A stretch of 64,000 nucleotides of DNA from an uncultured Bdellovibrionales bacterium (lineage in GTDB: Bacteria; Patescibacteriota; Minisyncoccia; Moranbacterales; GWC2-37-73), in the NCBI GenBank assembly GCA_964484505.1, contig CAZAFB010000004.1:23265-87264 (forward strand). Direction: 5' to 3'. This document shows, piece after piece, positions 2,973 through 34,506 of the stretch. A program made the translations under genes and the position numbers. The notes beneath the pieces were generated by a model. That model had not been told where the DNA came from. It worked only from the letters and a program-made list of their open reading frames with translations, and searched no databases. Position 1 is the first letter of the stretch. Every line of letters starts with the position of its first letter.

Positions 2973-3763
2973 TGGGTAAATATATCCAAGTGATCAAAAA
3001 CAGCTTTGCGCGCAATATCGTGTATCGTACAAACGTGTTCGCGATGCTTTTTTCCGACCTGATAGTATTCGGCGTCTTCTTTTATTTTTGGAGCAGTATT
3101 TATCGCGAAGGCCATCAAGTCGGCACGTATACGTTGGCATCCATCGTTTCTTATTATTTGGCAGTTAATCTTTTCGGATTGCTTATCAAGGGTGATGATA
3201 TCGCGTGGAGAGTTGGCGACGAAATAAGATTTGGTCAAATCACTTCCTCTTTGCTCAAGCCGATTCACTATGTTTTGTATAAGTTTTCGCAGTCGATCGG
3301 CGGCTTGATTTTACGTTTGGTAGTTGTATTTTTTTCCATCACTGCGATATCGCTGTTGTTTGGTCAATATATCGATTTGCCCGATGATCCTTTGCGCGTT
3401 GTGTATTTTTTGATTTCACTTTCATTGGGATGGCTTATTTATTTTTTTCTGTTTCTTTGCGTCGGGATTGCGACTTTTTGGATTGGCATGGCTAAGGGGC
3501 TCAATTTTTCATTAAGCGTAGTTGCAGGTTTTTTGGAAGGAAGTGTGATTCCGCTTGATTTGCTCGGATCCGGATTTTTGAAAATTTCAAATTTTCTTCC
3601 TTTTAAATATATTATTTTTATGCCCGTGAGCATCTATTTGGGACGTGTACCGCTGTCAATTTCTCAACTGCTGATCCCTTTATGCTGGGCGACATTTTTT
3701 ATTTTGCTGTCGTTTATATTATTTAAATCAGGGTTAAAACGTTATGAAGCTTTTGGCGCGTAA
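2969..3763 (+). CDS. ABC-2 family transporter permease
   Basis: Multi-TM hydrophobic protein overlapping the ATPase stop by 4 nt (operon). Confidence 0.6.
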   Translation: MMGKYIQVIKNSFARNIVYRTNVFAMLFSDLIVFGVFFYFWSSIYREGHQVGTYTLASIVSYYLAVNLFGLLIKGDDIAWRVGDEIRFGQITSSLLKPIHYVLYKFSQSIGGLILRLVVVFFSITAISLLFGQYIDLPDDPLRVVYFLISLSLGWLIYFFLFLCVGIATFWIGMAKGLNFSLSVVAGFLEGSVIPLDLLGSGFLKISNFLPFKYIIFMPVSIYLGRVPLSISQLLIPLCWATFFILLSFILFKSGLKRYEAFGA

Positions 3764-4629: not shown

Positions 4630-5127
4630 TTATAATTTTTTTATGGCTTTTTCAATAAACTCCCTGGTGAGGCATCCATCACAGATTATCTTTCCATTGA
4701 GAAATTCTTGTAGTGCTCTCTCTGCGCAAAAAGCCATCATTGAATCGGAAATGTTGATTTCCGAGTGCTTCTTGTACATCTCGATTACAGCCACGTCGGT
4801 TATCAAGGAAACATGGGTGGCGCTAAATACGGAGGTGTTTCCAAAGACCTTTTCTGCTTCAGAAAGAACATCCACGTTAAGATCATCTTCAGGAAGCAAT
4901 ATTCCAAGCGCCCCCAAGATGTCTCGCGTACTTTTTTTGCAGCAGTTGCATTTTATTGACGCCAATGCAGGCTGCACATAAATTTCCACTTCAAGGCGGA
5001 ATTCGCCACCCCTGTTTGACAAGCTAATGCTCAAGGGTATAGTGATTACCAATTCGCCGCCAACCGTGATTTTTTCTGCAAGCATCTTAAGCCCTCCAAT
5101 GGAATTTTTTGTGGTCATTGACCGCAA
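4630..5127 (-). CDS. hypothetical Cys-rich protein
   Basis: ORF with CNCC and CDGC motifs; only minus-strand gene in this region, ends at the bidirectional terminator. Confidence 0.4.
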   Translation of the reverse strand: MRSMTTKNSIGGLKMLAEKITVGGELVITIPLSISLSNRGGEFRLEVEIYVQPALASIKCNCCKKSTRDILGALGILLPEDDLNVDVLSEAEKVFGNTSVFSATHVSLITDVAVIEMYKKHSEINISDSMMAFCAERALQEFLNGKIICDGCLTREFIEKAIKKL

Positions 5128-31926: not shown

Positions 31927-32529
31927 ATGGAACATCCAAGAAAGGAACAAACATTCATAATCTTGAAACCTGATGCGATTCAGCGTGGCTTCATGGGAGA
32001 GATTATTTCACGTATTGAAAGAACGGGACTTAAATTCACTGCAATGAAATTTTTCGTGCCCAAAGAAGATCAATGTTGGCAGCATTATAACAAAGATGAT
32101 GCCTGGTTTGAATCCAAAGGAGCTCGTATCGTAGCCGACCGCGAAGCAGCAGGACTTCCGATTGAAAAGGAAGCTAAGGAATACGGTAAGGATATCATTC
32201 GCCAATTGGCGGTGTTTATGACTTCCGGGCCGGTGCTTGCGGCGGTGATCGAAGGTAATCAGGCAGTGAATATTGTAACTAAACTTGTGGGAGGAACGGA
32301 ACCGACAACTTCGGACGTCGGAACAATTCGTGGTGATTTGACTATCGATTCATATGCGATGGCAGGAGTTGATGGGCGCGCGGTGCGTAATTTGATCCAC
32401 TGCTCAGACAAACCAGAAGAAGCGCAAAGAGAGATTAAGATTTGGTTTGCGGAAGAAGAAATTGTAAAATATCGTCTGATCAATGAACAGATGCTCTACG
32501 ATGTGAATTTGGATGGGATACTGGAATAG
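31927..32529 (+). CDS. ndk: nucleoside diphosphate kinase with insertions
   Basis: FIILKPDAIQRG, FMTSGP, NLIHCSD (catalytic His); 200 aa against the usual ~140. Confidence 0.8.
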   Translation: MEHPRKEQTFIILKPDAIQRGFMGEIISRIERTGLKFTAMKFFVPKEDQCWQHYNKDDAWFESKGARIVADREAAGLPIEKEAKEYGKDIIRQLAVFMTSGPVLAAVIEGNQAVNIVTKLVGGTEPTTSDVGTIRGDLTIDSYAMAGVDGRAVRNLIHCSDKPEEAQREIKIWFAEEEIVKYRLINEQMLYDVNLDGILE

Positions 32530-32921: not shown

Positions 32922-33119
32922 ATGAATAATGATGTTGCGGTGGTAAATGAGAATCTTCGTGGTTTCCCGGCGGCTGATGCTGAAAATTGGCGCGAGCTCA
33001 ATGAATTGGAATATGTAATAAATAATGCGAAAGGAGGATTCGTGGGGGATTTTACAAAGATTGTCGCGAGGTTTATTTGCTTGAAGAGGAAGTTGGGTTT
33101 GCCGTTAGATATCTGGTAA
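32922..33119 (+). CDS. small hypothetical protein (65 aa), SD-led
   Basis: GGGAGGG SD 8 nt upstream of the ATG. Confidence 0.35.
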   Translation: MNNDVAVVNENLRGFPAADAENWRELNELEYVINNAKGGFVGDFTKIVARFICLKRKLGLPLDIW

Positions 33120-33136
33120 AAAAAGGAGGAGATATC

Positions 33137-33346
33137 ATGGAAATAAGCATGGCTGGGGACAAACGTTTCGAAGTTTATGCTGAGTTATGCCGTGAGACAG
33201 TTCAGATCAGACTTAAATTGGATAGGAATGATATTTCGGCAGACAAGAGAATAAGACTTTCTAACCGCTTAGGGGATCTGGTGAATAGGATCATACCGAG
33301 GCATGTTGAAAGGATCAACTTTTCCGACTACAAACGTTTCAAATAG
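33137..33346 (+). CDS. small hypothetical protein (69 aa), SD-led
   Basis: AAGGAGGA SD; in-frame ATG inside the track ORF 33077..33346. Confidence 0.4.
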   Translation: MEISMAGDKRFEVYAELCRETVQIRLKLDRNDISADKRIRLSNRLGDLVNRIIPRHVERINFSDYKRFK

Positions 33347-33481
33347 CGTTTGATAAAGCGGTTTTTTCGAAAGTTAAAACTGACAAAAAGTCGGCCGAAA
33401 ACATCGGTCGCATACATGGGGAGTGTAAGTCCTTTGACCAAGGCAGCTCCCCGCGCAATTTTTTAAAGAAGGAGAAAAGAT

Positions 33482-33622
33482 ATGAACAAAAGTGATGAAA
33501 AAAAATTGAAGACCATTGAATCCGAACTGAAAAAGCGCAACTTTATTGACACCGGTCATCTTGATGGTTTACTGGCACAACGTGCCTTGATTTTACTGCT
33601 TAATCGTCCTCGCCTTTTGTGA
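33482..33622 (+). CDS. small hypothetical protein (46 aa), SD-led
   Basis: AAGGAG 7 nt upstream; followed by a hairpin plus T-run terminator. Below the ORF-track cutoff. Confidence 0.3.
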   Translation: MNKSDEKKLKTIESELKKRNFIDTGHLDGLLAQRALILLLNRPRLL

Positions 33623-33751
33623 TAACATTATCCATCGCGATAATTGTAATAGTTGTGGAGCGTTCTTTTTGAATGCTCCTTTTGATTTTTCTTTTGCGTA
33701 TGATAAGCTATAAAAAACGGGGCGTGGGGCAGTGGTAGCCCGCGAGCATGG

Positions 33752-33865
33752 CCCTGAAGTAAATTTTTCGGGCTGTAGTATACCGGTAGTACGCGTCCAT
33801 GGGGTGGATGTAGACCGGGTTCAATTCCCGGCAGCCCGACAATTATCCGAAAAATTACTTCAGGG
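33752..33865 (+). repeat. 19/20-bp inverted repeat (CCCTGAAGTAAATTTTTCGG / CCGAAAAATTACTTCAGGG) bracketing tRNA-Pro
   Basis: Near-perfect reverse complements at 33752-33771 and 33847-33865. Confidence 0.85.
33769..33839 (+). tRNA. tRNA-Pro (anticodon GGG)
   Basis: Acceptor CGGGCTG/CAGCCCG (C1-G72 typical of bacterial tRNA-Pro, A73), D arm, anticodon stem CGTCC/GGATG, loop ATGGGGT (U33, G37), T arm CCGGG-TTCAATT-CCCGG; CCA not encoded. Confidence 0.8.
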
Positions 33866-34024
33866 TAGAGGTGTTTGCTTGCCCCGCACTAAGCTTGCTT
33901 TGGTGCTGAGGTAGCGGCGGTTCGATTCCGCCTGTCCCGACCACGTAAAATTGTTACGCAATCACGTGGCATAGCCAGAAAAATTGCTGTGCAATAGCGC
34001 ATAGCCTTGGAATTGTTACGTAGC

Positions 34025-34038
34025 TAGTTACGTAACTA
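34025..34038 (+). promoter_or_regulatory. perfect 14-bp palindrome TAGTTACGTAACTA 6 nt upstream of the NUDIX gene start (operator-like)
   Basis: Self-complementary; related GTTACG / TTACGTAA motifs recur at 33950-34023 and 34610-34630. Confidence 0.5.
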
Positions 34039-34044
34039 AAAAAT

Positions 34045-34506
34045 ATGACTGAAAACCAAAACATAATCAGCGAGAGGGCGGCGGCGATCATCATTAAAGA
34101 CGATGATATTTTGCTGATGCATCGAAGAAAGCACGGCAGGGAATATTTTGCAGTTCCCGGTGGGCAAGTTGAAAAGGGGGAAACGCCGCAGATTGCCGCC
34201 CAGCGCGAGGTGAAAGAGGAAACAAATTTGGACGTAGAAATAGGCGAGATGCTACTTTCTTTTGAGCGGGATATCTATGAAGAAAATGGTATTGCTGAAT
34301 ATCATGAAAAAAGTGGTGGCAGGGTAAAAGAATATTTTTTTCTGGCGAAAAGCATTTTCGGTGAAACTAAACTTGGCGGCCCGGAACTAGAAAGACAGAG
34401 TGAAGAAAATTTCCATGAACTCCAGTGGGTTAAGCTTTGTGAGATAAAAAATATACCGCTCCTGCCGGAGAGAGTTAAGGAATTATTGGTTGAGAATTTC
34501 GGATAA
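34045..34506 (+). CDS. NUDIX hydrolase
   Basis: Nudix box GGQVEKGETPQIAAQREVKEETN. Confidence 0.85.
   Translation: MTENQNIISERAAAIIIKDDDILLMHRRKHGREYFAVPGGQVEKGETPQIAAQREVKEETNLDVEIGEMLLSFERDIYEENGIAEYHEKSGGRVKEYFFLAKSIFGETKLGGPELERQSEENFHELQWVKLCEIKNIPLLPERVKELLVENFG

Follow-up and report, generated by a model that had tools for sequence, protein, structure and literature searches.

Structure of the locus

The stretch considered here, called the window, comprises 64,000 nucleotides of contig CAZAFB010000004.1 from an uncultured bacterium that is deposited under the label Bdellovibrionales and placed by GTDB in the Patescibacteriota. Between its ndk and NUDIX genes lies a tRNA locus (33718-33943, coordinates being those of the window) in which a tRNA-Pro(GGG) gene, bracketed by complementary arms, stands between the two halves of a second tRNA-Pro(GGG) gene. 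All parts of the locus are on the + strand.

The inner tRNA-Pro(GGG) occupies 33769-33839, 71 nt up to the discriminator A73, with the CCA not encoded. The first-pass annotation, made from the letters alone, had described it as canonical, and so it is: ARAGORN calls it at 33769-33840, and Rfam RF00005 matches 33769-33839 over the full model (1-71) with 51.4 bits, compared with a gathering score of 29. Its cloverleaf above the gathering score, U8, G18-G19 and T-loop TTCRANY are those of a canonical bacterial elongator tRNA. On its 5' side is a leader, the left arm (33752-33768, CCCTGAAGTAAATTTTT, single copy within the window), and on its 3' side a trailer with the right arm (33840-33865), in which 33840-33846 are unpaired and 33847-33865 pair with the left arm. 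The bracketing inverted repeats noticed at first pass are found as two overlapping pairs, 33752-33767 with 33850-33865 (16 nt, 94%) and 33762-33771 with 33847-33856 (10 nt, 100%). The flank duplex has a predicted energy of -32.9 kcal/mol versus -16.6 +/- 3.5 for shuffled sequences, and it is more stable than all of them (0/1000 as stable). A junction linker, TAGA (33866-33869; TATA, TAAA or TGAA in related loci), provides the final bases of a 118-bp cassette (33752-33869) that consists of left arm, inner tRNA, right arm and TAGA.

Outside the cassette are the halves of the outer gene. The 5' half (33718-33751) carries the acceptor 5' strand (33718-33724), U8 and G9, the D arm (33727-33741), G26, the anticodon-stem 5' strand CGAGC (33743-33747) and the loop bases A32 U33 G34 G35 (33748-33751). 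Past the cassette the gene resumes (33870-33877) with G36 G37 U38 and the anticodon-stem 3' strand GTTTG (33873-33877), as placed by alignment to intact tRNAs of relatives and by ARAGORN on the spliced sequence; the cassette is thus sited between nucleotides 35 and 36. There follows a 34-nt hairpin in the variable loop (33878-33911, CTTGCCCCGCAC...GGTGCTGAGG, single copy within the window). The 3' part (33912-33943) is made up of the variable loop TAGC, the T arm GGCGG-TTCGATT-CCGCC (33916-33932), the acceptor 3' strand TGTCCCG and, at 33940-33943, A73 with an encoded CCA.

Do these outer segments belong together? The pairing proposed for them at first pass, with two G-U pairs in the acceptor, a T arm and a CCA end, is borne out: 33718-33724 forms 7/7 pairs with 33933-33939, two of them G-U, and the minimum-energy fold of the 226-nt locus (-100.9 kcal/mol, z = -3.9) closes on the outer acceptor stem, with a long helix that ends in the inner cloverleaf. 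Two details had to be corrected. Of the outer anticodon stem suggested earlier, CGAGC with GCTTG, the first strand stands, and the true 3' strand, by homology to intact orthologues, is GTTTG; and of the simple second tRNA-like gene in two halves, the halves are there, but the extra variable-loop hairpin had been missed. When 33752-33869 and 33878-33911 are both removed, ARAGORN reports a canonical 74-nt tRNA-Pro(GGG) plus CCA. The identity set of tRNA-Pro, from studies of the E. coli prolyl-tRNA synthetase (ProRS), is C1-G72, A73, G35, G36 and G37. Inner and outer genes both present C1-G72, A73 and the anticodon loop AU-GGG-GU, the outer one only once 33752-33869 is taken out.

On the native sequence, ARAGORN in intron mode returns the inner gene only, a result that the first-pass annotation had named as speaking against a second tRNA; this is a limit of the predictor, not absence of the outer gene. 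ARAGORN also places a 96-nt 'tRNA-Ala(tgc)' at 33848-33943, which is spurious, as it is built from the outer T arm and acceptor 3' strand and has 3/7 acceptor mismatches. Annotation is thus misled, both by the false tRNA-Ala and by an outer gene that all predictors used have missed, and tRNA counts feed the genome-completeness estimates of these organisms. The locus is no assembly artefact, since 33650-34044 (395 bases) is 100% identical, wherever covered, in nine independent assemblies.

A putative promoter read from the sequence lies at 33682-33709, with a -35 element TTGATT (33682-33687), a 16-nt spacer and an extended -10 element TGaTAAGCT (33701-33709); a consensus promoter scanner made no call at 33682-33709. 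The promoter-like TGnTAWGCT, an A-rich stretch (ATAAAAAA in the window and L010) and CGGG are kept in L010, L014, L016, L098 and L099, where L-numbers denote loci of relatives fetched for comparison. Transcription would be predicted to start ~7-9 nt past the -10 element, at or near the 5' end of the outer tRNA. A terminator-like hairpin with a T tract (33657-33689; a 9-pair stem at 33657-33679, then TTTTGATTTT) ends the upstream unit of small open reading frames (ORFs).

Sister genomes and recurrence in Patescibacteria

Relatives were collected through homologues of the NUDIX protein and compared on the synteny ndk-tRNA-NUDIX. In L098, L014 and L010 the outer halves of the window correspond to one uninterrupted tRNA-Pro(GGG), here termed type B, whose anticodon arm, variable loop, T arm and 3' end match them (...GCGAGCATGGGGTGTTTGTAGCGGCGGTTCGATTCCGCCTGTCCCGACCA). 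L099 has, directly past the promoter, a stand-alone tRNA, type A, which is 100% identical to the inner gene of the window; the inner gene is also 100% identical to the tRNA-Pro(GGG) of L117, L139 and L150, all from metagenome-assembled genomes (MAGs) in GTDB, and its sequence is a functional one that is widespread and highly conserved. Because type B is intact in these sisters and type A stands alone in L099, the window locus is type B interrupted by a type-A cassette. Comparison of related genomes had been suggested as a check at first pass, and of the two readings then offered, a tRNA inserted in a tRNA agrees with the intact sisters, whereas an intron-containing or split tRNA that is spliced finds no support, as discussed below.

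By the alignment, the insert spans 33752-33869 and separates G35 from G36 without duplicating a base, and the flanks ATGG and GGTG rejoin as the undisturbed ATGGGGTG of the intact gene. Spliced, the outer gene of the window is 89% identical to that of L098, the 3' half being identical, and 33912-33943 is identical in L098 as well as in the nested loci L226, L227 and L013. Within the 5' half, G26 through the anticodon-stem 5' strand and loop (GCGAGCATGG) is the same as in the intact tRNAs of L098, L010 and L014; acceptor and D-stem bases are changed, with pairing kept. The variable-loop hairpin is missing in the intact orthologues, and a homologous hairpin is present at the same position in L013, L148, L201 and L218.

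Among the relatives the nesting takes partial, reciprocal and probably multi-level forms. L013, L226 and L227 are nested like the window, L229 holds several layers of remnants, and L098 and L016 keep only an outer 5' half, that of L098 also breaking off after ...ATGG. In L010 an intact type-B tRNA lies between degraded outer halves with extra hairpins, the type of these halves being uncertain on comparison with L229. L226 and L227 encode one identical NUDIX protein, 97% identical to that of the window, and have the same right arm, variable hairpin and outer 3' half as the window; the whole trailer and right arm (33840-33865) is the same in both and has two differences in L013. Both nevertheless have an inner tRNA other than that of the window; the one of L226 is 92% identical to that of the window and 99% to that of L152. 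The inner gene of L227 ends in a variable-arm hairpin, which suggests a further nesting level. L013 is nested and L014 and L098 have the intact gene, though their NUDIX proteins are 86-87% identical. Judged by such comparisons, the nested state turns over fast between close strains.

How widespread is the arrangement? One genome per GTDB species was scanned with a degenerate tRNA-Pro 3' pattern, which gave at least 120 loci, most of them from MAGs labelled Patescibacteria or candidate phyla radiation (CPR) and some bearing the automatic labels Gammaproteobacteria, Bdellovibrionales or Nanoarchaeota. Under a strict test, an orphan T arm (5/5 stem) had to follow a called tRNA, its 7-nt acceptor strand had to pair in full with a 7-mer that lies upstream of that tRNA and is followed by U8, and no further tRNA could intervene. 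At least seven composites among the ~120 listed loci passed it, namely L148 (Jorgensenbacteria), L159 (Kaiserbacteria), L167, L201, L209, L211 (Vogelbacteria) and L218, those without a named group being from other Parcubacteria. More than ten others among the ~120 are looser or partial, and about ten have only 5' or only 3' remnants; among the matches listed, the arrangement is found in ~6-15% of sampled tRNA-Pro loci. Further nested composites are Pro(UGG) in L121 (~220-470), Pro(CGG) in L135 (~3360-3620) and, in L120 (~4640-4830), a tRNA-Ala(CGC) inside a tRNA-Ala-like outer gene with G3-U70.

Host and cargo are of the same isoacceptor type in every case. The break after ...AUGG recurs in the window, L148, L098, L187, L209 and L155, and in the Pro(CGG) composite of L211 the break follows ...UUCG; the cassette ends carry a common motif, CCC...GGG-U(R)(R)AG. 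The variable-loop hairpin, starting CTTGCCCCG..., and the arms are homologous among the window, L013, L148, L201 and L218, the last of which has at least three layers. The outer 5' acceptor strand pairs 7/7 with the outer 3' strand in 10/11 composites, but 7/7 with the inner 3' strand in only 2/11. In most of the minimum-energy folds of ten loci (the window, eight composites and L187, in which the outer 3' half has decayed), the outer acceptor stem closes the molecule and the inner cloverleaf caps the long helix.

The Vogelbacteria contig L211 carries three nested composites within 1.1 kb, Pro-CGG, Pro-GGG and Arg-CCG (~1764-2010, 2423-2609 and ~2640-2820 in oriented coordinates). Outer relics gather GC-rich hairpins or tandem repeats, located in the D loop, at position 26, in the variable loop or in the T loop. 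The T loop of L135 (~3520-3600) has five copies of a 13-nt unit, TCCGCCAGCCGGC, the outer relic of L121 (~400-470) has inserted hairpins or tandem repeats, and the same hairpin, TTTACCCTGTYGTGTATGCRACAGGG, sits in the outer-relic T loop of both L010 (2868-2895) and L229 (~175-205). On a metagenome contig, ARAGORN calls a 94-nt tRNA-Met(CAT) in L031 (654-747), which may contain an intron.

Are the arms DNA repeats, or do they act as RNA? The arm and junction helices of 16 loci comprise 298 Watson-Crick and 40 G-U pairs, and 1x1 A-C oppositions number only two; in 15/16 loci the sense strand folds more stably than the antisense strand, with 40 versus 15 G-U pairs. The sequences of the arms vary widely between lineages. 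Since the arms diverge yet stay complementary, and since the G-U bias is on the tRNA strand, they point to an RNA helix, formed by the tRNA-sense transcript, as the object of selection, which argues against arms that serve as terminal repeats read by a transposase. A terminal-inverted-repeat transposon or miniature inverted-repeat transposable element was also rejected on other grounds: inverted arms of ~19-20 nt are present, but no target site is duplicated, and both the arm and the variable hairpin occur only once in the 64-kb window.

Similar arms are found elsewhere. In tRNA-Val / Pro-CGG / Pro-GGG arrays (L113, L136, L155, L185, L138, L203, L210 and L213) the tRNA-Pro(CGG) lies between complementary leader and trailer arms; in one example these are GGGAGGTGTTCT... 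and ...AGAACATCTCCC. The arrays have no outer tRNA halves. L155 has an orphan anticodon remnant, ending ...GCGCATGG at the break, ahead of the left arm. Because the arms flank tRNA-Pro(CGG) also where outer halves are absent, the 'tRNA plus arms' unit seems to be a stable processing cassette.

Function and origin of the composite

As the alignments show, the resident tRNA-Pro(GGG) gene just downstream of ndk is split at G35/G36 by a cassette with a replacement tRNA of the same identity, and such splitting has repeatedly occurred, or spread, in Patescibacteria. What does the composite then produce? With somewhat more confidence than doubt, it is regarded here as a nested 'matryoshka' tRNA gene, in which the inner tRNA works and the outer one is a non-decoding remnant or by-product. 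The inner tRNA is presumably the working gene. One promoter would give a single transcript from the outer 5' end, and this transcript would fold as a dumbbell, a helix of ~25-30 bp linking two domains of tRNA shape. The inner tRNA would be set free by RNase P, by an endonuclease or exonuclease acting on the 3' side and by the CCA-adding enzyme, and would then decode; the outer RNA would be left as two pieces that are held by the arms and the acceptor stem and could not decode. All of these processing steps are inferred. The outer anticodon bases are lost in L201, L211, L218 and L159, and such loss in several lineages is counted as evidence for a relic.

The nesting itself probably stems from cassettes, each a tRNA with its arms, that are time and again inserted or replaced in the anticodon loop of a gene for the same isoacceptor. 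At the DNA level they may enter by recombination that follows the uptake of DNA, by gene conversion with a nuclease acting in trans, or by something new. A cell whose single-copy essential tRNA gene is hit would survive only if the insert supplied the same isoacceptor, which would explain the strict match of host and cargo.

Could the cassette instead be an intron? Removal of the 118 nt, perhaps together with the variable hairpin, and ligation of the outer exons would join ATGG to GGTG (...GCATGG to GGTGTTTG...) and yield two functional tRNA-Pro(GGG) per transcript. The outer exons are complete and make a canonical tRNA without the inserts, and the arms would hold them together, as in archaeal split tRNAs. 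The location in the anticodon loop is also one expected of group I introns: Nakagawa et al. (2026; PMC13011429) describe self-splicing group I introns at 35/36 in the tRNA-Asn and tRNA-Asp of Patescibacteria and find this site to be enriched there. However, the group I and II models, which had been suggested as a check at first pass, give no match at E <= 10 in 33600-34050 and none at gathering score in the window or in ten nested loci, the latter having only tRNA matches in Rfam at that score. The insert is too short, being mostly tRNA with no room for a ribozyme core; its 5' junction is G35 followed by C and does not lie after U, and its last base is A, not G. An archaeal-type intron fares no better, as the predicted fold has at the junction an asymmetric 2 x 5 internal loop (~2 nt versus 5 nt) and no bulge-helix-bulge (3-nt bulges, 4 bp apart). 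The ORFs near the locus in the 64-kb window show no domains of splicing endonucleases or ligases. After cleavage by RNase P and RNase Z the arms would still be attached to the exons, the outer anticodon bases are gone in the four loci named above, and a second identical isoacceptor would be redundant. Splicing is considered very unlikely.

tRNA genes, and anticodon loops in particular, are classic integration sites. Might the outer pieces be attachment-site (att) debris of a deleted integrase-type island in a tRNA-Pro gene, or the outcome of a tandem duplication with deletions? Orphan 5'-only and 3'-only fragments beside intact tRNAs (L126, L152, L098) would suit such an origin. Integration, however, leaves a direct repeat, whereas the outer pieces are non-overlapping, complementary halves that abut exactly at 35/36; the insert is 118 bp with complementary arms; and the same breakpoint is seen in independent loci, after ATGG in the window, L148, L098, L187, L209 and L155, and after CG in L211. 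No integrase, other recombinase or shared gene lies nearby, and when the ORFs in the +/-3.5 kb around 21 nested or partial loci were clustered all against all and compared with those of 100 simple loci, no family was enriched. Duplication would require two independent deletions with exactly complementary breakpoints, repeatedly, which is implausible. Debris of this kind is given hardly any credence. A crossover by a serine or tyrosine recombinase was likewise rejected, the junctions having on inspection neither a shared core nor a duplicated dinucleotide.

Other identities were discarded as well. Y RNA or YrlA is not indicated by the scores (Deinococcus_Y_RNA 24 bits versus 80, YrlA 14.8 versus 69), and there is no TROVE/Ro domain in the ORFs tested. 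A tmRNA or two-piece tmRNA does not fit a locus that has no G3-U70, is too short and gives weak partial matches. tRNA-Sec and class II tRNAs were set aside because the orthologues lack the long variable arm, which is here an insertion.

Several observations weigh against the nested gene with an outer remnant. Between the window and L226/L227, the outer 3' half, right arm and variable hairpin differ at 0/104 nt, while the downstream spacer differs at ~5 per 100; relative to L013, the outer 3' half has 0/39 differences and the spacer ~6/33. The outer D stem of the window has two double compensatory changes with respect to the intact orthologues and is still paired. In L201, L211 and L218 the junction has been remodelled to a continuous helix, and the variable-loop hairpin and arms are common to the window and the Jorgensenbacteria MAG L148, although the adjacent NDK is only 61% identical. 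These signs of constraint are as compatible with long-term maintenance, or with repeated gene conversion, as with a recent relic. In addition, no target-site duplication, shared core or linked enzyme points to an insertion route.

Is the composite, then, a functional RNA, in which, once the insertion had taken place, the outer tRNA-like domain (acceptor, D and T arms, which make up the elbow and top half) is kept by selection as a scaffold? Such a scaffold might attract RNase P, RNase Z or the CCA-adding enzyme or hold them in place, protect the transcript ends, set the 3' end ahead of a co-transcribed NUDIX mRNA, or serve as a tRNA-like RNA that does not decode. The outer 3' half and arms that are more conserved than the adjoining spacer in the window clade, the compensatory changes in the D stem, the junctions turned into pairs and the G-U bias of the helices on the RNA strand all speak for it. 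Moreover, at least seven distant lineages have intact outer acceptor, D and T stems, with sequences that differ and are always complementary, and the outer anticodon arm of L159 is trimmed on both sides in such a way that the helix is continuous and the top half perfect. Yet presence varies among close relatives (L013 versus L014/L098, with L099 simple), many lineages keep only a 5' or 3' remnant, the outer D loop or T loop is broken by hairpins or tandem repeats in L010, L121, L135 and L229, and only the ~6-15% of sampled tRNA-Pro loci given above, among the matches listed, have the arrangement at all. The stems may also look conserved through recent function or through recombination with functional alleles. 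A selected scaffold is on balance judged unlikely.

Genomic setting and comparison with known systems

The window is a piece of bacterial chromosome with genes mostly on the + strand, ProRS, enolase, NrdD, ComEC, EF-G and EF-Tu being among the encoded proteins. Upstream of the tRNA locus are ndk (31927-32529) and three small ORFs, and downstream is the NUDIX gene (34045-34506). The closest ndk among the fetched loci, with 75% amino-acid identity, is that of a Candidatus Moraniibacteriota MAG. The small ORFs (32922-33622; 65, 69-89 and 46 aa) gave nothing significant in Pfam, PHROG and NCBIfam searches; size-matched ORFs are present at the same position in relatives with a tRNA here and are missing in L100 and L104, both of which are without the tRNA. 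The idea that the small-ORF and tRNA block is an inserted island was dropped for the tRNA, because the linkage of ndk and tRNA-Pro(GGG) is common across Patescibacteria. The bacterial-type ProRS encoded at 747-1973 has only 408 aa; ProRS models match both ends, and the central INS editing domain is missing.

No terminator is found between the tRNA locus and the NUDIX gene. The sequence before the NUDIX start (33944-34044) contains two ~33-nt direct repeats (AAAATTGYTRYGCAAT..CATAGCC) and a palindrome pair (GTTACGTAGCTAGTTACGTAAC). ACGTAA-type palindromes before NUDIX are kept in relatives, and the repeats and palindromes may constitute an operator or promoter for the NUDIX operon. In L099, a relative with the simple state, the 3' end of the tRNA-Pro directly adjoins the NUDIX start codon or runs into it (2354-2430, CCCGACATGAATC), so that tRNA and NUDIX mRNA are probably co-transcribed there, and tRNA processing would create the 5' end of the mRNA.

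Is the cassette carried by phages? As far as IMG/VR and the GenBank phages show, there is no sign of this: searches of GenBank phage DNA with the locus (blastn) and the surrounding 8 kb (megablast) returned nothing, and a scan of viral contigs (IMG/VR) with the tRNA-Pro pattern gave 0 matches. A scan of genome contigs with the NUDIX protein had no match, and a metagenome scan with a NUDIX alignment gave, among the matches listed, only distant NUDIX genes without synteny or tRNAs.

In the full-text literature searched, no description was found of a tRNA gene nested in a gene for the same isoacceptor, and absence there is no proof. The loci thus apparently form a recurrent, undescribed family of nested tRNA genes in Patescibacteria, a variant among disrupted tRNA genes. 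Their recurrence across Patescibacteria and their turnover between strains point to an insertion or replacement process that acts on tRNA anticodon loops. Beyond this, it is tentatively proposed, with rather more doubt than confidence, that the tRNA-plus-helix cassette is an unrecognised intervening element that invades the gene of its own isoacceptor at 35/36 and takes over the function. If so, the cassette might be selfish, a minimal 'addictive' element that recombination spreads, or it might be the starting point of a functional two-domain tRNA-like RNA with an outer scaffold. It would then be a fourth kind of disrupted tRNA gene, beside intron-containing, split and permuted ones, and the first without need of splicing. 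Should the outer body be functional, it would be a natural tRNA scaffold that presents a tRNA, and it would bear on pre-tRNA processing with minimal RNase repertoires.

How does the composite compare with known systems? Disrupted tRNA genes of archaea include those with bulge-helix-bulge introns, among them a tRNA-Trp intron that holds a C/D box small RNA, and the split tRNAs of Nanoarchaeum and Caldivirga. As in these, the break is in or near the anticodon loop, a helix joins the halves and the intervening RNA can be a functional small RNA. Unlike these, the host is a bacterium with no known splicing endonuclease, the junctions are without bulge-helix-bulge, the halves and cargo lie in one transcription unit, and the cargo tRNA duplicates the identity of the host.

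With the partial tRNA gene duplications that flank integrative elements at att sites, the composite shares tRNA fragments beside an intact tRNA, the anticodon-loop target and incoming DNA that restores function, but it has no direct repeat and no integrase, its cargo is only 118 bp, and a whole tRNA is brought in where an integrative element would complete the host gene. The arms resemble leader-trailer helices such as the rRNA operon stems that are substrates of RNase III, in that sequences flanking a stable RNA come together in a long helix. A tRNA body likewise tolerates a large insert in engineered 'tRNA scaffold' RNAs, whose cargo is placed in the anticodon stem; the anticodon arm, position 26 and the variable loop are sites where inserts are tolerated without loss of the L-shape. 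The putative scaffold here differs from the engineered ones in being natural and in having another tRNA as its cargo.

The nearest likeness is with the group I tRNA introns of the same phylum, which are also inserted in the anticodon loop at 35/36 and whose host genes are also missed by standard tRNA finders; neither tRNA-Pro nor nested tRNAs are mentioned in that report (PMC13011429). Is this position a general hotspot in Patescibacteria? The shared site raises the question. The inserts themselves are unlike: in place of a ribozyme core, with a U before the 5' junction and a terminal G, the cassette described here is a complete tRNA of the same isoacceptor with a leader-trailer helix, for which splicing is not indicated.

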